The notes below the pieces were generated by a model, which was given only the letters and a program-made list of their open reading frames with translations, did not search any database and had not been told where the DNA came from. From the NCBI GenBank assembly GCA_965217775.1, contig CBDCJH010000002.1, positions 1,344,001 through 1,408,000 on the forward strand: a DNA stretch of 64,000 nucleotides. Direction: 5' to 3'. This document shows positions 1 through 15,583 of the stretch, piece after piece. Within the stretch, counting starts at the first letter, position 1. Every line of letters starts with the position of its first letter. The position numbers were made by a program, and so were the translations under genes. The stretch comes from Acidobacteriota bacterium (GTDB lineage Bacteria > Acidobacteriota > UBA6911 > RPQK01 > JAJDTT01).

Positions 1-411
1 CGTTCGCTGGTGTTGCGGATGACGCTGTCCGGACGTGGAGAGCTGCACCGTTTCCTGCGTCAACCCGGGTCCGTCGACGACTTGGCGGATGAATTGAAAC
101 GGGCTTCGGCCAACCTGCACCCCTTCGCCTGGTGTGAGCGGATCGAAGACCGCACGGCAGGGCCGTTCGATCGGAGCGTACGCCTTCGGGGATCCGATTT
201 CGTGGCGGATCTGCTCCGTCTCTGCGACCAGTCGAAGCAGGATCCCGAGTTGCTGGGACAACTTCGAGAGAGTCTCTCCGAGCTCTTTCATCATTGGAAA
301 TACAGGCGGTACTTGAAGGACGCTATTCCGGATGATCCGGCCCTGTGCTCGCTACTGGACGAGGCCGAGTCCATGGCCTTGAACCTGCTGATCGAGGACG
401 ACGGGTCGTGA
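1..411 (+). CDS. C-terminal part of an SbcD/YhaO-like DNA repair exonuclease (5' end outside window)
   Basis: Open frame from the window edge ('LRMTLSGRGELH...'); its stop overlaps the start of a YhaN-like ATPase, the usual yhaO-yhaN arrangement. Catalytic N-terminus not visible. Confidence 0.6.
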   Translation, partial: RSLVLRMTLSGRGELHRFLRQPGSVDDLADELKRASANLHPFAWCERIEDRTAGPFDRSVRLRGSDFVADLLRLCDQSKQDPELLGQLRESLSELFHHWKYRRYLKDAIPDDPALCSLLDEAESMALNLLIEDDGS

Positions 412-3400
412 GAATACAGGGGTTCCGGATCGAAGGCTTCGGCCGATTCGCCGACCACGCCGTCGGGCCTTTCGACCATCCCGTCACACTGATCTACGGC
501 CCCAACGAGGCGGGGAAGAGCACTTACCTGGCATTTATCCGCACCATCCTCTTCGGGTTTCCCCGTCGCCTTGGAAACCAGCACTACCCGCCGCTGTCGG
601 GTGGCCGTCACGGTGGACGAATCGATCTTGTCAGCGGCGACGGCAGTCGCTACTCGGTGCATCGAATCCAAGGCCGAGGCGCCGGGCCCGTCACGACCAC
701 AGGCGCCGGTGGAGAAAATCTCGACGAGAGAGTGCTGGCCCAACTTCTGGGACACCACAGCCGCGACGTCTTCGAGAGTGTCTTCGCCTTCACGCTCGAA
801 GAACTCCACAGTGGCGACCTGCTGGGGAAATCGAGCGTGAACCGCCAGATCTACAGTGCCGGCATGGGAGTCACGAAGCTCCCCGCGGTGATGCGGACGC
901 TCCAATCGGAGAGGGAAGCTCTGTTCCGCAAAGGGGGGAGCGTCAACCGGATCGCCCGTACGGCCCGAAAATTGGGTGAAATCGAGGCGAGGCTCCGAGG
1001 CATTGCGACCAACGCCGCAGCGTACGGTCGCCTCACGACCCGTCTCCAAGAGGTCGAGGCCAGACTGGTGGCCCTGAATCAGATCCGCCGTCACGGCCAG
1101 AATCGGCTCGACCGCCGGCGCCAGCTTCAGGATGCCTGGGAAGATTGGAACGACCTGATCACCATCGAGAGGCAGTTGTCCGAACTTCCGGCGATAGACG
1201 ACTTCCCGGCCGACGGCATACGCCGGCTGGAGGCCCTGGAGGAGCGGTTGAGGGGGGCAAGGCGGGAATACGATTCCGCCCGCACCAGCGTCGAGGAGGT
1301 CAAGTCGAAGACGACCGTCCGAATTGAGCATGACGCCATCGTCGACAGAACTGACGAGGTCCGGAACCTGGGGCGCCTCCGCGGGGCGTTCGACCAGTCG
1401 GTGCGCGATCTTCCCAAGCGGCAAGCGGAACTCGAGAACTACCAGAATGATCTGGCCAAGACCCTCCGGGAATTGGGACCGGATTGGGACCAACAGCGGC
1501 TGGACCACTTCGACCTCTCGCTCGCTGTCCGCGAGGAGATATCACGGCACGAGGAACGGCTGCGGCAGGCACGGGAGGGGTTGGGGCGTAGCGAGTCGGA
1601 TTTAGAGCAGGCGCAAGCCCGACTGAACGAGGCGTCCCATTCGGTGGAAAGAGCGAAAGAGGAGTTGGAATCCGCGCCCAGGCCGAAGTATGACGCAGCC
1701 GGGATCAGGCGGCGGCGAAATCAGATTCGAATGGCCAGGGTCCAGTTGGACCGGTATGCCCGGGAGGCCCAGCGTGCTGCGGACCTGAAGCGGCAACTGG
1801 ACGGTGTCTACCAGACGGGTTCTCCAAAGGCAGCGAGCGACATGAAGTGGCTCCCCGTCCTGTGCGCGGCGTTCGGCATCGCCCTGGCCGTGGCCGGAAC
1901 CATGGCCGGCGGGACGGTCTTGGCCATGGGCATGGTCACGAGCCTGTTCCTGATCGGCTTGGCGGTCTACCTCCATGTCCGAAACCGTTCCGATTCCGGA
2001 ATGGCGGAATCGCCGATTGCAGGTCCGATCCGCCGGTCGCTCGAAGCTGCCCGGCGGCGACTCGTGACCATACGATCCGAGCTGGATGAGACTGCCGCCG
2101 AGATGGGCCTCCGGGGGATCAATGAGTCCGTCCTCACCGGCGCCGAGGAGACGTTGGATGCGGAGAGCTCACGTCTCGTACAGTGGGAACGGCTGCGGGA
2201 GGTCTTGGATCGGGGCAAGGGGTCCCTGCAAAGGCGGGCGGCCAGGAAGGACGAAAAGGCCGAGAACGTCGAGCGGGCGCTACGGCGAGTCGACGCCGCG
2301 AAGCAGGCGTGGGAGGCCTGGCTCGGAGAGCGCAGTTTGCGGACGACCTTCAACCCGGAGGCCATGGGCGAGCTTCGAGGGCAGGTCGAACTGGGACGGA
2401 ACCAATTCTCCGAGGTTCGAAACTGGCGCCAACGGATCACGGCGATTCAGGAAGATATCGATTCATACACGGCGATGGTGGCGTCGCTGGCTTCGTCCTT
2501 CGAGGTCGAATTCGATCCCGGCGATGGTCAAGCGGTCGCCGCAGCGGCCGACACGTTGATCGATCTGCATGGACGGGTGGCGCAAAGGGTGAGGGATCGA
2601 TCCAACGCGGCTGACGACCTCCGGATGGCGGAGCGGGAGTTGCAGGAGCGGTACCAGCAACTGTCCGACGCCGAGGCCGAGATGGCTGGTCTTTTGCAGT
2701 CGGGGGGCGCCACGGATGCCGAGCACTTCAGGAGACGAGCCGAACGGTTCCGCCAGCGCACCGAACTCGGCGAGCGAAAGCGCGAGGTCGGGGGTCGGCT
2801 CCAGCGAATCAGCGGTCCGGGCGAGCATCTGCAATCGCTGGAGGAGAGACTCGAGAACACGGATCTTCAGTCGATCCTCGCCTGTATCAACGAGGTGCGC
2901 GACGAACTCGCCGAAGCCGACGAAGAGATCCAGACCCTCTCCACCGAACGCGGCGGAATCCGTAACGATCTGGACCGGCTCATCGGAGAGGAAGAGTCCT
3001 CAGGATGGCGAATGGAACGTCATCTGCTCCTGGAACAGATCCGGGGTCATGCCCGGGAATGGGTGATTCGCACGCTGGTCCACCGGCTGTTGGAAACGGC
3101 CCAGAACAAGTTCGAGAGGGAACGGCAGCCTGGCGTCGTCCGTCATGCCGAACGATTCTTCGGGCGGATCACCGGGGGCCGATACCCGCAGGTGTACGCT
3201 CCCCTGGGAGAACGGACGATCATCGTCACCGACGGTACCGGTCGCCGGAAGTCGCCCCAAGAGTTGAGCCGGGGAACTCGGGAACAGTTGTTCCTGTCGT
3301 TACGTTTCGGGCTGATCCGGGAACTGGGCCAGCGGACGGAACCGTTACCCGTGGTCGTGGACGAAGTCCTGGTGAATTTCGATCCGGACCGTGCATTGCG

Positions 3401-3530
3401 GGCGGCACGCGCCTTCGTTGAGTTGTCTCGGACCAACCAGGTCCTGGTCTTTACCTGCCACCCGACGGTGGTTGAATTATTCCAAGAGGCAGCGGGAGAG
3501 ATGAGCCCGGATTTGATCCGCGTTGGGTAG
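408..3530 (+). CDS. YhaN-like AAA/SMC-type ATPase with long coiled coil and central TM hairpin
   Basis: GTG at 408 gives 'MRIQGFRIEGFGRF', Walker A 'YGPNEAGKST', signature 'LSRGTREQLFLSLR', Walker B 'VVVDEVLVNFD', H-loop 'FTCHP'. Confidence 0.9.
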   Translation: MRIQGFRIEGFGRFADHAVGPFDHPVTLIYGPNEAGKSTYLAFIRTILFGFPRRLGNQHYPPLSGGRHGGRIDLVSGDGSRYSVHRIQGRGAGPVTTTGAGGENLDERVLAQLLGHHSRDVFESVFAFTLEELHSGDLLGKSSVNRQIYSAGMGVTKLPAVMRTLQSEREALFRKGGSVNRIARTARKLGEIEARLRGIATNAAAYGRLTTRLQEVEARLVALNQIRRHGQNRLDRRRQLQDAWEDWNDLITIERQLSELPAIDDFPADGIRRLEALEERLRGARREYDSARTSVEEVKSKTTVRIEHDAIVDRTDEVRNLGRLRGAFDQSVRDLPKRQAELENYQNDLAKTLRELGPDWDQQRLDHFDLSLAVREEISRHEERLRQAREGLGRSESDLEQAQARLNEASHSVERAKEELESAPRPKYDAAGIRRRRNQIRMARVQLDRYAREAQRAADLKRQLDGVYQTGSPKAASDMKWLPVLCAAFGIALAVAGTMAGGTVLAMGMVTSLFLIGLAVYLHVRNRSDSGMAESPIAGPIRRSLEAARRRLVTIRSELDETAAEMGLRGINESVLTGAEETLDAESSRLVQWERLREVLDRGKGSLQRRAARKDEKAENVERALRRVDAAKQAWEAWLGERSLRTTFNPEAMGELRGQVELGRNQFSEVRNWRQRITAIQEDIDSYTAMVASLASSFEVEFDPGDGQAVAAAADTLIDLHGRVAQRVRDRSNAADDLRMAERELQERYQQLSDAEAEMAGLLQSGGATDAEHFRRRAERFRQRTELGERKREVGGRLQRISGPGEHLQSLEERLENTDLQSILACINEVRDELAEADEEIQTLSTERGGIRNDLDRLIGEEESSGWRMERHLLLEQIRGHAREWVIRTLVHRLLETAQNKFERERQPGVVRHAERFFGRITGGRYPQVYAPLGERTIIVTDGTGRRKSPQELSRGTREQLFLSLRFGLIRELGQRTEPLPVVVDEVLVNFDPDRALRAARAFVELSRTNQVLVFTCHPTVVELFQEAAGEMSPDLIRVG

Positions 3531-3606
3531 ATTCCGGTCAAGTTTCCACGAAGGTCGGACAGGACCAGGTTCGGCAATCAGTGGAGGGTACTGGAACAGC
3601 GGTGAA

Positions 3607-3692
3607 CGTAGGGGCACCCCTTGTGGGTGCCCGCTGTCGCTCCTTGCTGATCGGCCCGGGCAGGGCGACCACACACAAGGGTCGCCCCTACG
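3607..3692. repeat. Inverted doublet of REP-like hairpins
   Basis: CGTAGGGGCACCCCTTGTGGGTGCCCG (3607-3633) and inverted AGGGCGACCACACACAAGGGTCGCCCCTACG (3662-3692); GTAG foot plus hairpin, also seen near 30160-30230, 38323 and 47690-47717. Confidence 0.8.
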
Positions 3693-3701
3693 CTCATTCC
3701 T

Positions 3702-3920
3702 GTGAAAACCGTGAAAACCGGGTTGACATTGGGTGTCCGCAACTTGTTCAATGTTGTTCCCGACGAGAACACAGTTGGACAGTCGCGGAGTGGGCGACTC
3801 GAAGATTCCGCTGGCAATTTGATCATCGACTCGCCGGGCATCTTCGTCTTCTCGCGCCGGTCTGCCCCGTTCGGCTTCAACGGTGGATTTCTCTACGCTC
3901 GCTACAGTGTTCGGTGGTAA
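3702..3920 (+). pseudogene. Orphan C-terminal fragment of a TonB-dependent receptor
   Basis: 'LTLGVRNLFNVVPD...APFGFNGGFLYARYSVRW*' resembles the last barrel strands of a TBDR with terminal aromatic residue; no upstream barrel coding sequence. Confidence 0.7.
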
Positions 3921-3958
3921 CCAATTGCAAATGTGAACGTGGAACGGAGTTGAAGCAG

Positions 3959-4792
3959 ATGAAGAAGAAGATCGCATCTCTCGCCATTTTGGTGTTCGGA
4001 TTTCAGGGCATGGCAGCAGCCCAGGATTCCATCTATTCGGCATCCGGAGATCTCGTCTTCGCCAGCAAGTACATCTGGCGCGGGCTGCGAGCGACCAATG
4101 ACTGGAGCCTGCAGCCGGCGATGACCCTGGGAATCGGCGGCTTCTCCGCCAATGTCTGGGGGACGATGGACCTGACCGCCGTAAACCCGGGCGATGCCTT
4201 GCCGATCCAGCCTGGTGACGGGCTCAAGGGGAAGTTTTCCGAAGTCAATTACGTCTTTTCCTACGATCACTCTTTTGAAGGCGCCACGGTCAGCGCGGGC
4301 ACCATTATCTATGTCTTTCCCGAACGGTCGGCTTCGCTGCCTGGGACCACCGAGATCTACGGAGGAGTGAGCCTGGATTCGGTGCCTCTGGCTCCTTCGT
4401 TTACTCTCCATGTGGATATGGACGAGAGCCAAGCCGGCGGTGGAAGCGCCGGACTGTACTTTCTTATCGCAGCCGGACACAGTTTCCCGCTCCAGCACGA
4501 CGTCCTGACCAGTTTCGACTTGTCCGCAACCGTGTCGCTCGTAAACGCCGGGTACACTGATTTCTTTTATAGTGTGAGTTCCGGCGGTTTCCATGACGCC
4601 AATATCACGGCGACCCTTCCCTTCACCATCAACGACAACTGGTCCGCCGGGGTTTTCGTCACCTATAGCGGCCTCATCGGCCAAGCGATTCGAGACAGCC
4701 AGTTGCAGGACCCGCGGCAACCAGCGAAACCTAGCGGCGCCTATCTGGCAGATACGCTCTGGGGTGGTTTCAGCCTGAGCGTCTCGTTCTAG
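3959..4792 (+). CDS. Outer-membrane beta-barrel protein (TIGR02001/Gcw_chp-like putative porin)
   Basis: Signal peptide MKKKIASLAILVFGFQGMAAA, motif 'SKYIWRGL...SLQP', terminal Phe 'GFSLSVSF'; GGAG RBS upstream. Confidence 0.75.
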   Translation: MKKKIASLAILVFGFQGMAAAQDSIYSASGDLVFASKYIWRGLRATNDWSLQPAMTLGIGGFSANVWGTMDLTAVNPGDALPIQPGDGLKGKFSEVNYVFSYDHSFEGATVSAGTIIYVFPERSASLPGTTEIYGGVSLDSVPLAPSFTLHVDMDESQAGGGSAGLYFLIAAGHSFPLQHDVLTSFDLSATVSLVNAGYTDFFYSVSSGGFHDANITATLPFTINDNWSAGVFVTYSGLIGQAIRDSQLQDPRQPAKPSGAYLADTLWGGFSLSVSF

Positions 4793-4822
4793 TCGTTGGG
4801 CGCTGAACCGAATCGTATTGCG

Positions 4823-5010
4823 ATGCAGTTACCAAGGGTTGTGTTGCGCGCCGTCAGCGGCGTTCTGGCGGCCGTGGTTCTCATCGGCATGGTGGCCGGG
4901 GCCGGGGCGCAGCCACGCCAGTCCCGCTGGTACGTGGGCGGAGGGGCCGGGGTGAACTGGCCGTCCAGGATGGAGCAGGAGGGCCACAATCTGGATACCA
5001 CCTGCTATCC
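4823..5010 (+). pseudogene. 5' half of an outer-membrane beta-barrel gene interrupted by the integrated element
   Basis: Signal peptide then 'WYVGGGAGVNW...HNLDTTCYP'; continues in frame at 14743 when the att repeats are joined. Confidence 0.85.
4999..5010 (+). repeat. attL core (12-bp direct repeat CACCTGCTATCC)
   Basis: Identical to 14731-14742; lies within GGATA-N8-TATCC (4993-5010). Confidence 0.9.
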
Positions 5011-5116
5011 CGATCAGCCGCTCCTGATAATTGACCATTATGGGGGATAGCTTGGGGATTATCAAATTCTCCCCGGCCGCGGTGGATGGGGAACATGTCG
5101 AAGGGAGGACTAGAAG

Positions 5117-6426: not shown

Positions 6427-6750
6427 ATGACGTGGCGAAAGGAGTCCGACATTGTGGACAACTGCCGACGCTGTGACGCCACCCTAAGCGATGGCTGCCT
6501 CCCTTCTCCTTGCGGCAAGCTGGAAGGCGGCTCTCAGGATTCCGGGGCCACATTGTGCCCCACGTGCCGAATGCTCTACTTCAGGGAGGCGGGAAAGCGA
6601 TCCGGCAGGATACGGCGACGGTGGCGGGAGGATCGGGATATCGGGATCGCCCACTTCAAGAAGGAGGGGATGACGAATAAACGGATTGCCGAGATTTCCG
6701 AGTGTTCCGAGCGCACTGTCTACTACGCCCTCAAGCGTCTTAACATCTGA
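6427..6750 (+). CDS. Zn-ribbon plus helix-turn-helix DNA-binding protein
   Basis: CRRC...CPTC, then 'GKRSGRIRR...GMTNKRIAEISECSERTVYYALKR' (HTH pattern). Confidence 0.7.
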   Translation: MTWRKESDIVDNCRRCDATLSDGCLPSPCGKLEGGSQDSGATLCPTCRMLYFREAGKRSGRIRRRWREDRDIGIAHFKKEGMTNKRIAEISECSERTVYYALKRLNI

Positions 6751-7240: not shown

Positions 7241-7623
7241 GCGTCCGGATCGGGATGGTCAATGAGAAGGAGGTCTTGTCCTCCATCGACCGGGTCATGC
7301 CCCGCGTTGAGACGGAGCTGACCACGGCCTTGGACGACGGCTTAGTATCAGCATTGCATCACTCTGAGCGCCGTGTGCCGGAGCGCACTGGTGATCTCAA
7401 GAGCACGGGCCGAGTGACCAAAACAGAGAAGGTAGGTGGCACTATCCTACGTGCTGAGATCGGCTATGGCGGCAAGGCGGCATCGGGACGGCAGGTTAAC
7501 TACGCCATCGAGCAGCATGAGAGCGTTCACAGTTCCGGAAGGAAGTACCTGCAAACCGCTATGGAACGTGCGGATCTTCCCGGTCGACTCGACAAGGCGA
7601 TGGCGAAGGCGCTGGGACTATGA
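7237..7623 (+). CDS. HK97 gp10-like neck/tail-completion protein
   Basis: 'RVPERTGDLKST...NYAIEQHE...GRKYLQTAME' follows the gp10 family pattern (PVxTGxL...YA..xE...xxL.PA); GGAGAGG RBS. Confidence 0.7.
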   Translation: MSVRIGMVNEKEVLSSIDRVMPRVETELTTALDDGLVSALHHSERRVPERTGDLKSTGRVTKTEKVGGTILRAEIGYGGKAASGRQVNYAIEQHESVHSSGRKYLQTAMERADLPGRLDKAMAKALGL

Positions 7624-7744
7624 CGGCGGCACCGGGGCACATAGTCACCTTGGGGACCCCTGTCCGGCTCGATCCGGCCCAGCCGGGCGGCGGGGTGGGG
7701 GTCAGCATCGAGTGCATGGAAAACGTTTTTACGGAGAGCCTGAA

Positions 7745-9412
7745 GTGAGCCTCCAGCGATACGAAAAGCGTCCATGTGGGTATTCGAGGTGTTCCAACCG
7801 CTTCGACGTCGTTGTGGGCCGTCGTGGGCGTCGTCGTGAGTATTGTCAGGCATCGTGCCGGGTGGCGGCCTGGAACCTGCGTAAACGGACCCATGAACCG
7901 CAGCCTGTGAAGGTGAAGGTTCCCAAGGACCCGTTCAGTGCATTGTGTTCGTGGGCGAAGGACACACTACGAATCCCTCCTGGACATCCCTTGTCCGGGC
8001 AGCCCATGTCCATTCCCAGGTTCGCCAAGCCCTTCCTCAAAGATGCGCTGGACCCTTCCAAATCCGAGTGCGCTCTGGTTTTGGGAAGGAAGAACGCAAA
8101 ATCTGCCATCTGCGCTGTGATTCTCTTGGGGTTTCTTGTGGGTCCCGTTCGGGCACATGGCTGGCGAGCGGGAATCTGTTCCATCTCCAAGGCGAAATCC
8201 AGGGAGTTGCGGGACCAGGTGGAGGACATCGCCAAGGCATCGGGACTGTCCGAAGACATCCTCTTCCGGAGATCCCCTTATCCGGGGTCCATCGAATCGA
8301 GCACCGGCAAGGTGGAGATCCTTTCAAGTGAAGGTGGTGGAGGACATTCTTCTTCCTTCGACCTTTCCATCATCGACGAAACGGGATTGCTCAAGGAGAA
8401 GGACCGGGGACTGGTCAACAGCATGAGGTCGGCGACTTCGGCGAAGGACGGCAAGGTTCTTCATCTGAGCATCTATGGAGACTCTCCTTTCATTCCGGAG
8501 TTGATCGGGATGAGGCACGAGCCCTTCATCAGCGTTCACGTTCATCAGGCGGACGAGGGTGCCCGTCTCGATGACCCGAAGCAGTGGAAGAAAGCGAATC
8601 CGGGGTTGGGGACCATCAAATCCATCTCCTACATGGAGAAGGCGGCAAGGAGGGCCATGCTCACCCCAAGCGACGAGGCCCACTTCCTGGCTCAGGACAT
8701 GAACAGGCCGGGGTCTCCGGATCGGATGATGCTTTGTTCGCCGTCGGACTGGGAACGGTGTCGGGTTCCAGTTCTTCCCCCGCGTTCGGGTCCCTGCCGC
8801 ATGGGGGTGGACCTTGGGGGCAGTTCTGCCATGACCTGCGCGGTTCTGTGGTTTCCCGACACGGGCCGCATGGAGACCTATGGAGCCCTGCCGGGGGTGC
8901 CGTCGATCAAGCACCGGCAACGGAAAGACCAATCCCGCTACGATCTCATGTGCCGATCCGGGGAGTTGCAGGTCTATGCAGGACATCGAACCGTTCCGGT
9001 GGACAAGTTCCTCCGTTACATGGCGGATGTCGTAAAGGGGGAGAATCTGGTCTCCATCGGTTCAGACCGATACCGGGATGCTGAAACGAGGCAGTTCGTC
9101 GACCAATCCGGACTCCCGTGGTTGAGGAAGTGGCTGTGGAGAGGCACGGGAGCATCGGCCACGGCGGACGGCAGCCATGACATTCGATCTTTCCAGCGTG
9201 CGGTCCTGAACCAGGAGATCAAGCACGACGGCGGCCTGATGATGTCATCGGCCATCAGTAACTCCAGCTTGAGGTTCCGGAACAACAACCCGGCCCTGGA
9301 GCGTTCTGGCCCTGGTCGAGTCGATGCCCTGCAAGCGGGAGTCATTGCCGTGGGGACCAGCACGGTCAAGGTGGCGAGATCCAGTTGGCGATACCGGGGG
9401 CGGGTTGGATGA
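7745..9412 (+). CDS. terL: Terminase large subunit (HK97-type) with N-terminal Cys4 zinc-finger extension
   Basis: Walker A 'GRKNAKS', Walker B 'LSIIDETG', 'WKKANPGLG', nuclease 'GVDLGGSSAMT', C-terminal 'RVDALQA'; GTG start at 7745 after GGAG. Confidence 0.9.
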   Translation: MSLQRYEKRPCGYSRCSNRFDVVVGRRGRRREYCQASCRVAAWNLRKRTHEPQPVKVKVPKDPFSALCSWAKDTLRIPPGHPLSGQPMSIPRFAKPFLKDALDPSKSECALVLGRKNAKSAICAVILLGFLVGPVRAHGWRAGICSISKAKSRELRDQVEDIAKASGLSEDILFRRSPYPGSIESSTGKVEILSSEGGGGHSSSFDLSIIDETGLLKEKDRGLVNSMRSATSAKDGKVLHLSIYGDSPFIPELIGMRHEPFISVHVHQADEGARLDDPKQWKKANPGLGTIKSISYMEKAARRAMLTPSDEAHFLAQDMNRPGSPDRMMLCSPSDWERCRVPVLPPRSGPCRMGVDLGGSSAMTCAVLWFPDTGRMETYGALPGVPSIKHRQRKDQSRYDLMCRSGELQVYAGHRTVPVDKFLRYMADVVKGENLVSIGSDRYRDAETRQFVDQSGLPWLRKWLWRGTGASATADGSHDIRSFQRAVLNQEIKHDGGLMMSSAISNSSLRFRNNNPALERSGPGRVDALQAGVIAVGTSTVKVARSSWRYRGRVG

Positions 9413-9711
9413 AGCGGTTGCACTCTCGAGAAATGGGGCGCCTGAGACGGCGGCTTTACAAGGAGCAGCAGAACAGGTGCGCGAAGTGTGGGCTGTTGTT
9501 CTTGTTGAGGGAGATGGAGGTCCACCACGTTCAGCCACTCGCCGAGGGCGGAACCCACGACGACGATAACGTCCAGCTTTGGTGCCTGGATGACCACCAT
9601 GAGGCCACTCGATATCAGAACACCGATCCCGCCATTCGTGACCAGAAGAGAGACTGGCGGGTGTTTCTACGAACGGAAGAACAAAGAATCTTTAGGAGGG
9701 TTCGAGCATGA
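9409..9711 (+). CDS. HNH endonuclease (gp74-like packaging cofactor)
   Basis: 'CAKCG...EVHHVQPLAEGGTHDDDNVQLWCLDDH'; ATGA overlaps with terL and capsid genes. Confidence 0.9.
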   Translation: MKRLHSREMGRLRRRLYKEQQNRCAKCGLLFLLREMEVHHVQPLAEGGTHDDDNVQLWCLDDHHEATRYQNTDPAIRDQKRDWRVFLRTEEQRIFRRVRA

Positions 9712-10979
9712 CCACGAAACAGAAACTGGAACTCCGGCGGAGTGAAGTCAGATCCAGGCTGGCCGAGATCGCCGGTCTGGACGAGTTGACGGACGAGATC
9801 CGCACCGAGTCCAAGGCACTGGAAACCGAGTTTGCCGACTTGGAGACGAGATACAGGGCGGCTCTGCTTTCCGAGCAGGACAACGGCAAGCTGGACGAGA
9901 CCGATACCAAGGGCCGGAAGCTCCGGAGCTTGGTCAAGAGGGCATCCCTTGTGAGCTATCTCTCGGAGAGCGTGCGCCAGAACGAGGTCCGGTCCGGATC
10001 TGCGGAGGCGGAGCTCAGGTCCGAGTTGTTGGGTAAGAACGCCCAGCCCGGACAGGTCCCCCTGGCGGTGCTCGCTCCGGAGGTCGTGAAGGAACGGAAA
10101 CGGGAGACTCGCGCCACCGATACGGCTACGGATGTGGGGGCCATCGGAATTCCGAACCGGCAAAACCAGATCATCCGGAGGGTGTTCTCGCAGAGCGCCA
10201 CTTCGTTCTTGGGAATCAGAATGCCCAGCGTCGCAATCGGCGAAACGTCGTTCCCGTACCTGAGCGCCGGGGTCAGTCCTGCGATGAAGGCCAAGGGGGC
10301 GCGTGCGGATGCGGAGGCGGCCACCTTCTCGGCCGAGTCCGTTGGGCCAACCCGTCTCAGTGCCCGATACCTGTTGAGGGTCGAGGACCTGCACCGTCTG
10401 GCCGGTATGGAAAGTGCGCTCAGGGCTGATTTGCGCGGCTCCCTGAGTGAAAGCCTTGATGCCCAGACCCTTGTTGGCGACGGAGTCGCCCCGAACGTGA
10501 CCGGGTTGTTGTCTGAACTGCCTGCGGCTGCGGCAGCGGGTGCGGCGGAGTTCTCGTGGCAGGAGGCGGTGCAAGTGATCGCCGATCAGGTCGACGGAAA
10601 ATATGCCGCCGATCCGAGCATGGTCCGGATGCTCTGTGCGAGTGATTTGTACTCGAAAATGGCCATCCGATTGGTGGCGGCCTCCTCAAGCGGCTCAAGT
10701 GTGAGCGCGGCATCGAGGTACATCCAGGAAATCAGCGGCGGACTGCGAGTCAGCGCGAACATGCCAGCCGCCGACTCCAACATCTCCACGGTGCTGTTAA
10801 GTCGGATGGGACACGCCGGCGCTTTTGCCCCGATCTGGGGAAATTCGTTCGAGCTCATTCGCGACCCGTATAGCCATTCGGCCACTGGCGAGGTGGCTCT
10901 GACGGCGATCATTTTGTGGGCATTCGTGGTGCCCCGTGAAGACGTTTTCGCACTGCGGAAGCTGAGAATCGCGGTCTGA
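9708..10979 (+). CDS. Major capsid protein, HK97 fold, with N-terminal coiled-coil delta domain
   Basis: Coiled-coil N-terminus, 'LDAQTLVGDGVAPNVTGLL', 'LIRDPYSHSATGEVALTA...VPREDVF'. Confidence 0.85.
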   Translation: MTTKQKLELRRSEVRSRLAEIAGLDELTDEIRTESKALETEFADLETRYRAALLSEQDNGKLDETDTKGRKLRSLVKRASLVSYLSESVRQNEVRSGSAEAELRSELLGKNAQPGQVPLAVLAPEVVKERKRETRATDTATDVGAIGIPNRQNQIIRRVFSQSATSFLGIRMPSVAIGETSFPYLSAGVSPAMKAKGARADAEAATFSAESVGPTRLSARYLLRVEDLHRLAGMESALRADLRGSLSESLDAQTLVGDGVAPNVTGLLSELPAAAAAGAAEFSWQEAVQVIADQVDGKYAADPSMVRMLCASDLYSKMAIRLVAASSSGSSVSAASRYIQEISGGLRVSANMPAADSNISTVLLSRMGHAGAFAPIWGNSFELIRDPYSHSATGEVALTAIILWAFVVPREDVFALRKLRIAV

Positions 10980-10982
10980 GTC

Positions 10983-11405
10983 ATGCCGATCGGCATCTTG
11001 AGAGGTCCAGCCGGAGCCGGTAAGTCCCAGTGGTTCGACGAGAACGCCGAACCGGGCGACTTGTGGCTTGACATCACGGCAATCTGGGCCGCCGTCCGGG
11101 GTCTCGAAAGGGGTCCCGATGGTCGCTATCCGGTGCGCTTGGACGACGACCAGGGCCTACGAATGGCTGCCTATCTGAAGGCCACCGGGATCGCCTTTGC
11201 CGAGCGTGAGGGCCTGGACGGATGGGCTACGACCAGTTCATCGGCACCGGAGGCCGTGGAGCGGATTCGGGAGCAGGGGGCAACGGGTCGGGCGCAAACC
11301 ATAGATCCTGGTGAAGCCGTCGTTCGGCGCAGGCTTGCCGATCCCGACACCGGCGAGTTGGACCCTCAATGTGATTCCGCGCTGTTGCGTTGGTACAGCG
11401 TATGA
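10983..11405 (+). CDS. Small P-loop NTPase/kinase-like protein
   Basis: Walker A 'ILRGPAGAGKSQW'; 140 aa; ATGA overlap with the protease gene. Confidence 0.75.
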   Translation: MPIGILRGPAGAGKSQWFDENAEPGDLWLDITAIWAAVRGLERGPDGRYPVRLDDDQGLRMAAYLKATGIAFAEREGLDGWATTSSSAPEAVERIREQGATGRAQTIDPGEAVVRRRLADPDTGELDPQCDSALLRWYSV

Positions 11406-11851
11406 AGATTGTTACGAACGTTGAAATCCGGGAGTCGTCCAAGGGAGTCAAGCGGCTCCACGCCGTCCTCATCCAAGAGGGCCGAGCCTCCACTGGAGGC
11501 CGTTCGGAGGTGATCATACCCGGAGCAATCACATGGCCCGATGCCGGGATTTCTTTAAGGGCCGTGCATCGGGGTCCCGCCATAGGAGTGGCGCATCCGG
11601 CGAGGCATCCGAACGGGGAAATCAGGATTGCCACGTTAGCGACCGGTGCCGTGATCCAGGCTGTCGAGTCAGGCAAGACCGGCATGAGCATCGAGTTCAC
11701 GGCGCTTCGCGAGAAAACCACCAAAGGCGGAATCCGTGAGGTACAGGCTGCTTATGTGGATGCTGCCGCACTCGTGAGCAATCCCGAATATGAGCAGGGC
11801 CGGGCCGAGATCCGATCCCGGAAGCGGAGGTCACAGCTATGGCGACTCTGA
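11402..11851 (+). CDS. HK97-type prohead maturation protease
   Basis: 'EVIIPGA...LRAVH...TGMSIEF...ALVSNPEY' matches the His/Ser motifs of the U35 protease family. Confidence 0.8.
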   Translation: MKIVTNVEIRESSKGVKRLHAVLIQEGRASTGGRSEVIIPGAITWPDAGISLRAVHRGPAIGVAHPARHPNGEIRIATLATGAVIQAVESGKTGMSIEFTALREKTTKGGIREVQAAYVDAAALVSNPEYEQGRAEIRSRKRRSQLWRL

Positions 11852-12231
11852 GCCCCTGGCCCGAAAGTGTGGGAGACCGAAACGCGGCTCTCCGTGAACT
11901 GGAACGCCATCTTAAGTATCCCGAGATCGACATCGACATCGGGGAGGAACGGGAGCGGCTGGAACTGGTCGGGGAGGCGGCTTCGGCCCTGGTCGAGCGG
12001 TACAGTCCTGGAGCTCCACAACGTATTCGGGATTTGGCCGTCGTCAGGACGTGTCAATACCTGCTTGCCCGATCCGGTGCCAGCGTGTCCAAGGTGACGG
12101 AGGAGTTGGGGGACTGGAACCACACCTTGGAATTCATGCCCAGTATGGTTTCGGCGCTCCGGGCGTCCGGATCAATGTCCCTATTGAGTCCCTTCAAGAT
12201 CCGCAGGGCGCGAAAGGTGACGGCGGCATGA
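11839..12231 (+). CDS. Head-tail connector (gp6-like)
   Basis: 'AASALVERY...APQRIRDLAV...LLSPFKIRR' is a gp6/gp15-like pattern; located in the head cluster. Confidence 0.65.
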   Translation: MATLSPWPESVGDRNAALRELERHLKYPEIDIDIGEERERLELVGEAASALVERYSPGAPQRIRDLAVVRTCQYLLARSGASVSKVTEELGDWNHTLEFMPSMVSALRASGSMSLLSPFKIRRARKVTAA

Positions 12232-13304
12232 AGTGGCAGGGACGGGAGGTCGACTTCGGTTTACGTGAGACTCGATCCAGCGGGTACACGGACCGGTTGA
12301 CCCAGCTCCTGGTGAGTCAGGCATCCACCGTGACCGAGACCGATCCCTCCCGGACTGGCGCTCTGGAGGTCTGCGCCGGGATTTGGGGCCGCGCCTTCGC
12401 ATCCGTGAAAGTGGAGCCGCAGACGGCGGCGCAGGTGCTCTCTCCCAACGTCCTGAACTTGATCGGCCGCCAACTGATCCGACAGGGTGAAGTCCTGTTC
12501 CGGGTCCAGGTGGTCAATGGTCAGCGCGTCCTGACCCCTTCGAGCGCCTGGGATGTCTCGGGAGGCGCGGACCCGTCCACATGGAGATTCACATGCTCTT
12601 TCAGCGGACCCGACTCCGAACAGGAGGCTACGCTGGAGTGGGACGAGGTGGTTCTGCTGACCTGGGCCACCGAGCCTGGAGCGCTCTACCGGGGCCTGGG
12701 ACCGCTTGAGGTGGGAGACTTGACCGGATCCCTGTGTGGGTCCTTGGAGAAGTCCCTCAGCAGCGAAATGGCGACGCCCAACGGATACTTGCTGACGGTC
12801 CCACAAGTGGACGAAGTGCCGGATGACGAGACCGATCCACTCGAAGATATGAGGGCCGATTTGAAGGGGCTCGACGGCGGTCTTTCATTGGTCGAAACGA
12901 CTCAAGGCGGGGGCGGCGAAGGCCGGGTAGCGGCTCCGGCGCGGGATTGGGTTCCGTCCCGGCTCGGTCCGTCTCCTCCCAAGGCGTTGTGCGACCTGCG
13001 CGAGGATGTCCACAGGACGGTCTTGTCCGCCTGCGGGATCTCCCCGGCGATGGTCGGCGGGCGTTCGGACGGAACTGCAAGGCGAGAAGCCTACCGAACA
13101 TTTGCGCATCTGTCCTTGACCCCAATGGGCCGGATGGTTGCAGCGGAACTGGCGGACAAGCTGGAGATCCCTGGCCTTCGATTCAACTGGTCGAACCTGA
13201 TGGCGGGAGACATCACAGGCAAGGCGAGGGCGTTCAGGAGCTTGGTTCAGGGCGGCATGGACGTAGCGAAAGCCGCCAGCCTCTCGGGGCTGATGACGGA
13301 TTGA
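12228..13304 (+). CDS. Phage portal protein (HK97-like, 358 aa)
   Basis: 'LIRQGE', 'YRGLGPL', 'VLSACGISPAMVG', 'F..LSLTPM...ELADKL'; ATGA overlap with the upstream gene. Confidence 0.85.
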   Translation: MKWQGREVDFGLRETRSSGYTDRLTQLLVSQASTVTETDPSRTGALEVCAGIWGRAFASVKVEPQTAAQVLSPNVLNLIGRQLIRQGEVLFRVQVVNGQRVLTPSSAWDVSGGADPSTWRFTCSFSGPDSEQEATLEWDEVVLLTWATEPGALYRGLGPLEVGDLTGSLCGSLEKSLSSEMATPNGYLLTVPQVDEVPDDETDPLEDMRADLKGLDGGLSLVETTQGGGGEGRVAAPARDWVPSRLGPSPPKALCDLREDVHRTVLSACGISPAMVGGRSDGTARREAYRTFAHLSLTPMGRMVAAELADKLEIPGLRFNWSNLMAGDITGKARAFRSLVQGGMDVAKAASLSGLMTD

Positions 13305-13442
13305 CGATAAACCCGCAGACCAGGACATGACGCTGGCAGCGGGCCGTCACTTGAAGATACACAGGTGATGGAAAACTCCCCGGTCGTGGGAACGGCGGGG
13401 AGTGAGTCAGGTTGTCCATGATGAGTTCGACCTGACAACAGT

Positions 13443-13471
13443 GGGGCGGGTGCTTCGAACACGCCCGCCCC
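13443..13471. terminator. GC-rich hairpin between convergent portal and integrase genes
   Basis: GGGGCGGG...CCCGCCCC stem; no clear U-tract. Confidence 0.35.
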
Positions 13472-13656
13472 ATCTTCCTCCCCCGCACGTAAGGGACCCT
13501 GCCCCATGGTTGGCCGGGCGTAGACTACCGGTGTCGGAGTGCACCCTACGTCCGCCACACGATTCCCTGGCCATCGGCGGCCCGTGCTGTCCTGGAGGTG
13601 TCAAAGCCATACCTGAGGACCCTCGAAACGCTCAGGCGCTCCTCTTGACTGGGCTT

Positions 13657-14640
13657 TCAGTCATCTTCCATGAACCGCGCGACGGCGTTCTTCTTGGCCC
13701 GTTCTCCCGAGACGTAATGGACGACCATCGCCGGACTTTTCCAGCCGCCGATCTCGGCAACGTCTTGCAAGCTAGCTCCCCGCCGCGTCAGTTCTTGAGC
13801 ACATCCTCTCCGCAAGGAATGGCCTCGGACTCGTTTCAACTCCACCCCGGCCTGCCGGGCGCGGACCCGGATAATGCGGCGCACGGTGTCGGTATGCAGA
13901 TCTTTGTCCAGAACGTTCGTGTTGGTGCAAGGACGGAAGAGCGGCCCGGTCTGGATTCGGGCTCTCTTGATCCACGCTCGCAGCAGCCGGGACGCGCGTT
14001 TCGTCAGGTAGCCATTACGTCCCGATCCCTGCGGGTCCGTCTTGCTCCGGCGGACGACGATCAGCGCCGATCCGTCCGCTTGAAAGGACACGTCTTCGAT
14101 TTCCAGGGCGCAGAGCTCACCGATCCGCAGGCAGCCGTCGTACATGACGCTGAGCAAGGCGGCGTCCCGGGTCCCCCAGAGCGGCCGGAACGTGGACTCG
14201 ATGATGGCCGACCCCACCATCTCCCGGACTTCATCGGCGCTCAGTCCCCGAGCCAGCTTGGTGCCCCGGTTCCAACCTTCTTTGGAGACGATACCGAGGA
14301 CTTCCTTGGTCTGCTCTCCAACCGGATCCAGCTCGTCTTTGGCCCTGGACCGCCATCTCGCGGCGTTGACGATCCCCCGGACGCTGGCCGGGGCGAGGCT
14401 GTCCGCGTCGAAGCGATGCTCGCAATACTCGGCCAGCAGGTCGTCGGTCAGATCACGACCTGCCAACCACTCGTCCAGTTTTCTCCAGACGTTTCGATAG
14501 GTTCGGCGGGAATTGGCGCTCAGCTTGCGGAGCTTGCGCCGGTAGCGGATGTCAGCCCGTGTCTGCATGACTGGTGTCCTTTCGGGTTCGGGTTCCCGTA
14601 CCGCGCGGCAGGCCGGGGTGAATTGAAGGATTCGTGCCAT
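13657..14640 (-). CDS. Cre-like tyrosine recombinase/integrase
   Basis: Catalytic R ('RDAALL..GCLRIGEL'), K ('RRSKTD'), HxxR ('GHSLRRG'), W ('GGWKS') and Y ('MVVHY'); RBS GAGGAGG upstream of the ATG at 14640. Confidence 0.92.
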   Translation of the reverse strand: MARILQFTPACRAVREPEPERTPVMQTRADIRYRRKLRKLSANSRRTYRNVWRKLDEWLAGRDLTDDLLAEYCEHRFDADSLAPASVRGIVNAARWRSRAKDELDPVGEQTKEVLGIVSKEGWNRGTKLARGLSADEVREMVGSAIIESTFRPLWGTRDAALLSVMYDGCLRIGELCALEIEDVSFQADGSALIVVRRSKTDPQGSGRNGYLTKRASRLLRAWIKRARIQTGPLFRPCTNTNVLDKDLHTDTVRRIIRVRARQAGVELKRVRGHSLRRGCAQELTRRGASLQDVAEIGGWKSPAMVVHYVSGERAKKNAVARFMEDD

Positions 14641-14730
14641 GTGTAACCTCCTCGGTTGCCCTCTACCTATCTCTTTCACCAAAACGAAAACGATCGAGGG
14701 CATTATTTTTTGAGGAGCGGTCTCGGAGAG

Positions 14731-14742
14731 CACCTGCTATCC
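14731..14742 (+). repeat. attR core (CACCTGCTATCC)
   Basis: Identical to 4999-5010; about 90 bp upstream of the integrase start. Confidence 0.9.
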
Positions 14743-15583
14743 GGACGAGGACTGCGATCGTCTACCTGGCGGCGGACCGCCAGGCTACCGCTGGCGCTAT
14801 GATGTCGAAGGGAAGAACGGAACCGCGTACGAGTTTTCCGTCGGCCGCAGGTTCAGCCATCTCCGAGTGGAATTTTCGGTCACCCGGCAGAAGAACGACC
14901 TCGAATCGGACTTTTCCGGGATCAGCTACGTGGACGGATCCCCCATCCTCTCCATCGAAACCGACCTTCAGGCGGAAGGAAGTTCCTCGGTCGGGGATCT
15001 GATCGCCCGCACGCTGTCGTTGAACCTCTACTATGACTTTCCGATGGCGTCGAATCGCTTTGCGCCTTATCAGCCCGTGGCAAAAGTCATCACGGCATTC
15101 GACCGTCCCTGCATCCCGGCGGACGGCGTTGCGATTCGGGCACATACTCCCGGTATGCACCCGAATCGCGCCTTGTCCGGCGGGCGCAGGAACGGTCTCG
15201 GTGCTCGCGGGACTTTCACCACGGACTGTTATGTCGGCGCAGGACTGGGGGCTTCCTTTGTCGAAGTGACCGATCTGTTTTATGAGAGCTCGTACAGCGG
15301 TCCCGGCGGGCCCTACGATCCTCCCTTGGAGTTTTACTCCAGTCGGACCAACGAGAACCTGTCCGATACGATTCTGGCGAAACACCTGTACGTCGGCGTC
15401 GACTTCGGATTGAGTGAAAGGACGCTGTTGGGCGTGAAGTTGTCCCACCTGCGGATGGGGGACTTCGCGGCCACGGGGGGCTACGACTTCCATCCGATCC
15501 CGGGATTGACCAGCGAGACCCGGTTCAGCGGCATGAACCACTGGTTGCTGGGGCTCACCGTCAAGTTGTTGCTCGGCCGCTGA
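14743..15583 (+). pseudogene. 3' half of the interrupted outer-membrane beta-barrel gene (contains in-frame MITE)
   Basis: 'TCYPDEDCDRLP...LRVEFS...LNLYYDF...FAPY[MITE]YVGAGLG...LYVGVDFGLSERTLLGVK...WLLGLTVKL', an OmpA/OmpW-like barrel pattern. Confidence 0.85.
15071..15228 (+). mobile_element. 158-bp MITE, copy 1 (TSD TTAT)
   Basis: 18-bp imperfect TIRs CAGCCCGTGGCAAAAGTC / GACTTTCACCACGGACTG; TTAT at 15067-15070 and 15229-15232. Confidence 0.9.

Follow-up and report, generated by a model that had tools for sequence, protein, structure and literature searches.

How a small integrated element finds its chromosomal target, and how it might tell its excised circle from its integrated form, are the questions raised by a 64,000-nucleotide stretch of an Acidobacteriota genome (assembly GCA_965217775.1, contig CBDCJH010000002.1, positions 1,344,001 to 1,408,000), the whole of which is referred to here as the window. 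A 9.7-kb element in the window appears to have been inserted into an outer-membrane-protein gene by its own Cre-like, arm-less integrase (13657 to 14640, minus strand). We consider it likely that the account as a whole holds, with (i) authentic attachment (att) sites; (ii) a Cre-like integrase without an arm-binding domain; (iii) a promoter coupled to the integrase gene (int) across the attP joint of the circle; and (iv) short outer arms that are not a conserved DNA feature and would act, if at all, as RNA.

Attachment sites and their core

The junctions are defined by the following features, numbered by window position; G005 and G006 are two other genomes of the same genus.

4796 to 5010, plus strand: 5′ part of the target gene, encoding a signal-peptide-bearing, outer-membrane beta-barrel-like protein (open reading frame [ORF] list; G006 orthologue)
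4993 to 5010, no strand: attL core, GGATA, 8-bp spacer and TATCC, the same as the empty attB core of G005 and G006
4999 to 5010, no strand: left copy of the 12-bp identity block CACCTGCTATCC (sequence and contig breakpoints)
5011 to 14730, no strand: integrated element body (ORF list; Pfam, PHROG and NCBIfam matches)
14725 to 14742, no strand: attR core, GGAGA, 8-bp spacer and TATCC, holding the right copy of the 12-bp block at 14731 to 14742
14743 to 15583, plus strand: remainder of the target gene (3′ part), sharing the frame of the 5′ part

As read from the window sequence, the attL core is GGATACCACCTGCTATCC and the attR core is GGAGAGCACCTGCTATCC. The exact direct repeat between them was found to be the 12-bp block (4999 to 5010 and 14731 to 14742), of which the 64-kb window holds no further copy, and strand exchange must have fallen inside this block. 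The two copies are spaced 9,732 bp apart, a multiple of 3, and the frame entering at 4796 is the frame leaving at 14743 to 15583; past the left repeat the target reading frame runs into the element and stops at 5050. The right flank was used as a DNA query against 40 relatives, including the 8 other genomes of the same genus, to look for empty sites, and the flanking gene was matched beyond a genus-wide repeat in two of these 8 (G005 and G006). In both, the gene is uninterrupted and the 18-bp attL-type core runs straight into the right flank of attR. The intact G006 orthologue (L008, 980 to 1855) encodes 291 aa with a signal peptide and beta-barrel-like repeats and is collinear with the window's two pieces across the site. 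The insertion point is at codons 62 to 66, approximately, of the outer-membrane-protein gene.

The junctions were also examined in Logan contigs of four public sequencing runs that hold the element (X1 to X4, from two studies); these runs may include the source sample and so are not independent support. The left-flank contig was found to stop at 5010 in three of the four runs (X1, X3, and X4) and the right-flank contig to start at 14731 in all four, with element contigs starting at 4981 (X1, X3, and X4) and ending at 14760 (X1 and X3). The contig branch points thus coincide exactly with the ends of the 12-bp block. Contig depth, which is not a share of cells, was about 5-fold lower in the element than in the left flank (left flank versus element: 77.8 versus 15.6 in X1, 56.4 versus 8.35 in X3, and 45.2 versus 8.26 in X4), a pattern expected of a population in which some sites are filled and others empty. 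No contig branch of an attP circle was seen in the Logan contigs, which drop rare variants, so this result is uninformative either way. Because the empty sites of G005 and G006 hold the same 18-bp core and the contigs break at the repeat ends, 4993 to 5010 and 14725 to 14742 are almost certainly the authentic attL and attR of a Cre-like integrase rather than a chance repeat. The original prediction, which had named these two sites together with an outer arm inside each element end, placed all four motifs correctly, and its assignment of attL and attR is borne out by the empty sites and contig breaks.

Symmetry of the core was a separate matter. One dyad center scored highest in attB, attP, attL, and attR, with CACCTG or the 8-bp spacer around it lying between the arms. 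The perfect arms are 5 bp each, and over 11 nt they match at 7 of 11 positions in attB and 6 of 11 in attP. When the same search was applied to random windows, this 11-nt dyad was equaled or beaten by 20% (attB) and 59% (attP) of them, and dyad symmetry was rejected as statistical proof of a lox-like core on these figures; of all window positions, 0.15% hold a perfect 5-N8-5 inverted repeat. The attP and attB sites are alike at 20 of 25 positions and differ outside the 12-bp block, including at the first base of the spacer. Cre uses a 6-bp stagger within an 8-bp spacer, and by analogy the first-base difference is compatible with a Cre-like 6-bp stagger inside an 8-bp spacer. Strand exchange would occur where the block begins, in a 6- to 8-bp overlap (CACCTG) with a short imperfect inverted half-site on each side, and attP and attB would both be small and resemble each other. 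The site is like loxP in having inverted half-sites around an asymmetric 6- to 8-bp spacer. Unlike loxP, which has 13-bp perfect arms and an identical partner, it has 5-bp arms, with attP and attB sharing the 12-bp block only. This layout is generic for a simple tyrosine recombinase, and the term loxP-like, as had been proposed, adds nothing more: the likeness goes no further than the generic layout, with arms of 5 rather than 13 bp, differing attP and attB, and a dyad at background.

The integrase and the element family

The integrase gene and its ribosome-binding site lie at the right end of the element.

13657 to 14640, minus strand: Cre-like tyrosine integrase, 327 aa (Pfam, Protein Data Bank [PDB] sequence search, AlphaFold2 [AF2], Foldseek)
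14647 to 14653, minus strand: int ribosome-binding site GAGGAGG, 6 nt before the ATG

The integrase frame is open and the catalytic set R172, K200, H274, R277, W300, and Y309 is present, aligning by sequence to the R, K, H, R, W, and Y of Cre, which we take to be R173, K201, H289, R292, W315, and Y324 in Cre numbering. These catalytic columns were found to be invariant or nearly so in a homologue alignment (A1), and R-E-K-H-R-W-Y is retained in all 8 integrases of the sibling elements described below. The best PDB sequence matches were 17 Cre or Tre sequences, from 3.2e-13 (7rhy_A) to 5e-12, followed by archaeal XerC-like (7e-8), XerA (7e-7), and XerD (2e-4) sequences. The alignment reaches the last residues of both proteins, and in it the RSKTD lysine falls on the beta-hairpin lysine of Cre and the GGW tryptophan on the tryptophan of Cre; the SKTD and GGW motifs that had been called Cre-type are thereby matched to Cre K201 and W315. 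The AF2 model, built from 19 sequences (predicted local distance difference test [pLDDT] 87.5, predicted template modeling [pTM] score 0.78), has residues 1 to 22 disordered (pLDDT below 50), five N-terminal helices at 28 to 124, and then the catalytic domain. The top Foldseek ranks were all Cre or Tre chains, with TM-scores of 0.66 to 0.76 over 293 to 330 columns spanning both domains; the best was 3crx_A (E 2e-13, TM 0.76 over 320 columns), with XerA as the next family (TM 0.45) and XerA, XerH, and the integron integrase IntI all ranking below Cre and Tre. Identity to Cre is 20 to 22%. No arm-binding domain was found, as Pfam gives only PF00589 and the helices of the AF2 model begin at residue 28. 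The proposal of a Cre-type integrase without such a domain therefore stands on the PDB alignment, the Cre fold, and the Pfam and AF2 results.

Compared with Cre/loxP of P1 (also Tre and other Cre-type enzymes), the integrase likewise has two domains, a five-helix N-terminal domain, and no arm-binding domain; as in Cre, a Trp stands at the second catalytic His position and a C-terminal helix aligns after the Tyr. The reaction differs, being integration into a chromosomal gene and not dimer resolution. The protein also resembles the arm-less, simple phage integrases of the IntBrujita subgroup, as described in the available part of the phage survey (PMC8138268), in having core-binding and catalytic domains and in serving integration of a phage-like element, and differs from them in host lineage and element type, the likeness here being one of domain layout. 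That part of the survey counts 27 simple against 410 arm-binding integrases (PMC8138268). The integrase of the element is thus a simple tyrosine integrase on a small phage-like element, a kind already known.

Close relatives of the protein proved scarce. An exhaustive protein search returned 145 representatives at E ≤ 1e-30 and 2,899 at E ≤ 1e-10, a word-indexed protein search returned 22 proteins at E ≤ 1e-10, and the only relative above 50% identity was P0002, a 206-aa fragment of 92 to 94% identity encoded on a 9,517-bp contig. The genome contigs and viral contigs searched held no close integrase relative with DNA, the metagenome contigs gave one weak 35-residue match that was not used, and exact searches with the left-junction 27-mer in viral contigs and the right-junction 22-mer in metagenome contigs gave 0 matches. 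A diverged copy of about 94% identity was observed in run X5 (second study), covering window positions 7357 to 14382, with one 426-nt piece holding 24 differences; it has small indels in the int leader at 14614 to 14705, with coverage of the leader to at least 14705, and probably corresponds to the P0002 fragment. At greater distance, integrase matches at E ≤ 1e-20 were found in 10 of 76 genomes of the order, and paralogues of 31 to 40% identity in all 8 other genomes of the genus. For 17 of the genus paralogues (34 to 40% identity), the upstream regions share neither core nor arms with the window. Nine paralogues of 37 to 40% identity (L002, L018, L019, L020, L021, L024, L026, L027, and L030) form a second group with its own conserved block of about 60 nt just upstream of the start codon across several genomes, and a paralogue of this group is found in the window's own genome (G000:C2:4142956-4143813).

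The remainder of the element encodes phage-like functions, assigned by profile match.

6427 to 6750: HTH gene (HTH_23 protein)
7436 to 9412: large terminase
9385 to 9711: HNH nuclease
9708 to 10979: HK97-type capsid protein
12051 to 13304: portal

In addition, the ORF at 10983 to 11405 has a partial match to phrog_4581, and six small element ORFs are without a family in Pfam, PHROG, or NCBIfam. Scanned against these collections at the thresholds used, the 14 element ORFs gave no match to a tail or lysis family, and no replication gene was recognised among them. In the available part of the report that describes capsid-forming satellites of the phage-inducible chromosomal island (PICI) type (PMC10085698), several traits are in common with the element, namely (i) a size of about 10 kb and an integrative habit; (ii) genes for integrase, HNH, large terminase, portal, and HK97-type capsid; and (iii) no recognised tail or holin genes. 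It is unlike the satellites of that account in that a primase-replicase, an AlpA/MerR regulator, a small terminase, and a head-tail adaptor or connector were not securely recognised here, and in gene order, which here runs terminase, HNH, capsid, three small ORFs, portal, and int (PMC10085698). Judged from its gene content, this 9.7-kb integrative, capsid-encoding, tail-less, phage-like element resembles a capsid-forming satellite, and it is called satellite-like and not a member of that class because several core markers of capsid-forming PICI were not found.

Relatives of the capsid were detected in 4 of the 8 other genomes of the genus, seven of them in G006. Eight sibling loci (L045 to L052, from G001, G003, G004, and G006) were fetched, several of which share the terminase, HNH, capsid, portal, and integrase layout, and their junctions were mapped by BLAST against G000 for empty sites; a search for direct repeats alone was rejected for this purpose, as it gave many chance 10- to 15-bp repeats. 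Clean empty sites in G000 were found for six of the eight, with identity blocks of 10 (L045), 6 (L046), 14 (L047), 8 (L048), about 8 (L049), and 11 bp (L050) and mapped element sizes of 9.7 to 12.2 kb. The other two (L051 and L052) were left out of all att, arm, promoter, and fold counts, since they had no clean empty site (flanks 179 bp and 4.3 kb apart). No core sequence is shared among the sibling elements, and so each integrase has its own target; the sibling junctions lie inside protein-coding sequence as far as the flanks could be read. The presence of siblings at six sites that are empty in G000 indicates that the family has been moving within the genus. What has been obtained is a mapped integrase/target pair with attL, attR, a natural empty attB, and a 12-bp exchange block. 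Together with the six sibling pairs, whose targets differ, it is raw material for orthogonal recombination tools, and the mapped pairs also serve the question of how arm-less integrases bias reaction direction.

Other observations concern the siblings themselves. The genus holds a family of capsid-encoding elements of about 10 to 12 kb with Cre-like integrases, and on either side of the exchange block the elements have sequence that partly resembles the target, as in L049. A segment of about 1.7 kb, common to L049 (3879 to 5652) and L052 (10828 to 12600) of G006 and matched at several places in the window's genome at 76 to 87% identity, resembles an insertion sequence. In L050 (G006), the interval from the att block to int holds a short ORF that is preceded by a TATAAT word and has a ribosome site of its own; it has no counterpart in the window and could encode an excision or regulatory protein.

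Proposed promoter coupling and the outer arms

The circular and integrated states would more likely be told apart by gene layout than by the arms. The feature on which this view depends lies at the end of the element distal to the integrase.

5037 to 5065, minus strand: outward sigma-70-like promoter site, TTGATA, 17 nt, CATAAT (consensus match, 10 of 12)

One such site was found, against 0.2 expected from shuffles. It reads from 5065 to 5037 on the int strand, so that it would face outward and be coupled to int by circularization only; in the circle alone does it stand upstream of the gene. By the same rule, the terminal 120 nt at the integrase-distal end were screened in seven elements (the window's and six siblings), and an outward promoter-like site on the integrase strand was found in five of seven by the strict rule and in all seven by the relaxed rule, with the −10 hexamer 9 to 33 nt from the identity block (relaxed). 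Control rates were 0.8% (strict) and 1.3% (relaxed) for random 120-nt segments and 6.3% and 8.1%, respectively, for segments matched in GC content. Between att and int or in the host flank, 0 of 7 elements had such a site. The hexamers and spacings vary between elements, and hence a kept function is argued rather than a kept sequence. From these sequence matches, coupling of the promoter to int across the attP joint appears somewhat more probable than its absence.

Similar arrangements are known from conjugative elements. In the part of the ICEclc report available to us, excision brings an outward promoter (Pcirc) to a place upstream of the integrase gene (PMC5812530), and in that of the ICEKp1 report, integrase promoter switching is likewise described, together with stem-loops in the int 5′ leader (PMC13023037). 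The element here is like both in having an outward, int-distal promoter that would stand upstream of int only after end joining; unlike it, those elements are large and conjugative as they are portrayed there, and the present case is made of consensus matches and folds only (PMC5812530 and PMC13023037). A hairpin formed from the two element ends, as proposed below, is not described for ICEclc or ICEKp1 in the accessible portions of those reports (PMC5812530 and PMC13023037). The conserved outward promoter suggests that small capsid-encoding, tail-less elements share the promoter-across-joint strategy of conjugative elements.

The outer arms lie just inside the two element ends.

5018 to 5025, no strand: left outer arm CCGCTCCT, which on the integrase-sense strand reads AGGAGCGG and is ribosome-binding-site-like
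14712 to 14720, minus strand: right outer arm, which on the int-sense strand reads CCGCTCCTC

The right arm is AGGAGCGG on the window strand at 14713 to 14720, and on the integrase strand it includes CCGCUCCUC, the complement of the int ribosome site GAGGAGG (14647 to 14653). Both arms are inside the element and so flank the core only in the circle, as the original prediction had said on grounds of geometry. Its further suggestion, that the arms are a DNA device telling attP from attB, was not supported, since they are 3 bp out of register and only one of six siblings (L045) has a comparable pair. The arms lie 4 and 7 nt outside the 5-bp core arms, about 13 to 24 bp from the dyad center.

If the arms do function, the RNA level leads: across the attP joint the left arm would pair with the right arm, which otherwise would mask the int ribosome site. 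The word CCGCUCCUC at the right end would, while the element is integrated, mask the ribosome-binding site of the integrase, and in the circle the outward promoter would transcribe the ribosome-site mimic AGGAGCGG first, so that the mimic could capture the masking word and free integrase translation. RNA folds were computed with ViennaRNA, with the circle-type leader assumed to start about 7 nt after the −10 hexamer. In the integrated-type leader, the right arm was predicted to pair with the int ribosome site, which had a mean unpaired probability of 0.13 (0.05 for the leader alone), and in the circle-type leader the left arm was predicted to pair with the right arm, leaving the ribosome site at 0.45. 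The ends of other elements did not have this effect, with six foreign left ends giving 0.02 to 0.07, and of 200 random 19-nt extensions 2% reached 0.45 or more. The folds of L045 moved the ribosome site from 0.19 to 0.84, a level that none of 200 random extensions attained, and this element would follow a like three-part logic with different words (TGGAGGC and GCCTCCA). That the outer arms are halves of an RNA switch existing only on transcripts that cross the attP joint is, on these models, a tentative idea that we consider possible though rather doubtful; if true, the element would sense its own topology at the level of translation.

The pairing may be read in two other ways. We give substantial, though less than majority, weight to the reading that the arms are a functionless chance match and that the core and the gene layout account for how the element behaves. 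Motif, length, and distance from the core were each picked post hoc; when 60-nt ends are aligned locally, the score of the window's arm pair is matched by 13% of random pairs, and some of the cross-element controls (n = 42) reach its score of 16. Among the siblings, none of six has a perfect inverted pair of at least 8 bp within 40 nt of both ends (two have 7-mers), and in five of six the inverted-pair scores are like random (19 to 82%), so that the arms are absent as a family feature there. Set against chance are the nearness of the arms to the core, a perfect 8-bp inverted pair being expected in 0.4% of random segments at 20 nt and 1.3% at 30 nt (2.5% at 40 nt and 6% at 60 nt), the exact complementarity of the right arm to the int ribosome site, the relief of masking by the cognate left end, which only 2% of random extensions achieve in the folds, and the L045 pair, which independently combines a ribosome-site-like TGGAGGC with an anti-ribosome-site-like GCCTCCA. 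The same closeness to the core, perfection, and position inside the element, where the arms are joined only in the circle, could instead point to extra DNA-binding sites for integrase protomers or an accessory protein, assembled only on attP and marking it; extra recombinase-binding repeats beside the core reportedly impose directionality on TnpI of Tn4430. At comparable offsets inside its two ends, L045 likewise carries an inverted pair, of 14 nt with 2 mismatches, whose score of 18 is attained by 4.8% of random pairs. We judge such DNA sites unlikely, as the arms are out of register and at or beyond a Cre-sized footprint, pairs of at least 8 bp are missing from all six siblings with five scoring like random, the random 60-nt pairs match as noted, the arm 8-mer is not rare in the window (5 occurrences on the two strands), and no third copy or arm-type array is present near either end. 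From these comparisons, the family does not conserve the outer 8-bp arms as a DNA feature, and they are probably not a DNA-level signal.

A broader alternative is that the element is a decaying prophage remnant, its att sites fossil and its integrase no longer working on them. The lack of recognised tail, lysis, and replication genes would suit such a remnant, as would the second insertion carried by the target gene in the window's genome. It is nonetheless very improbable, given that the catalytic residues are all intact in an open frame, the repeat is perfect in both copies, the assembly graphs branch at its ends with element depth several-fold lower, as fits filled and empty sites, and siblings stand at six different sites that are empty in G000. 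The account of a mobile element with promoter coupling across the joint has its own weak points. The core dyad is not above background, and the overlap and cleavage positions are inferred; the closest integrase with readable DNA is only 40% identical, so that conservation of the arms was judged from distant kin only; and the element yielded no recognised replication, regulator, or head-tail genes of the kind usual in capsid-forming satellites. The promoter sites are consensus matches only, to a consensus that may not be the host's, and the seven elements are kin, so that nominal binomial probabilities overstate the promoter case. On the RNA side, the fold shift was seen in two of seven elements, with the other five showing none, the masking at 0.05 to 0.13 corresponds to about the 7th to 12th percentile of 250 ordinary genes of the window's genome, and the folds ignore kinetics and assume the transcript start.

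The target gene and its surroundings

Neither the pieces of the target protein nor the whole was assigned a Pfam or NCBIfam family. The insertion lies in an outer-membrane-protein gene and seemingly in a minority of a natural population, so such elements may act as gene-disrupting switches. Within the 3′ part of the gene, a 162-bp repeat was observed at 15067 to 15228, which is in frame and leaves the ORF open. This repeat has many copies in each genome of the genus searched and is absent from the G006 orthologue, and the higher-depth contigs of all four runs skip it, with 15066 joined to 15229 and 4 bases ambiguous. It looks like an insertion of the miniature inverted-repeat transposable element (MITE) type that is missing from most of the population. 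Upstream of the target gene are genes for a 1,061-aa AAA_27/SMC-type ATPase (345 to 3530) and a 403-aa MipA-like outer-membrane protein (3581 to 4792), and with these neighbors the insertion sits in a small cluster of outer-membrane-protein genes.

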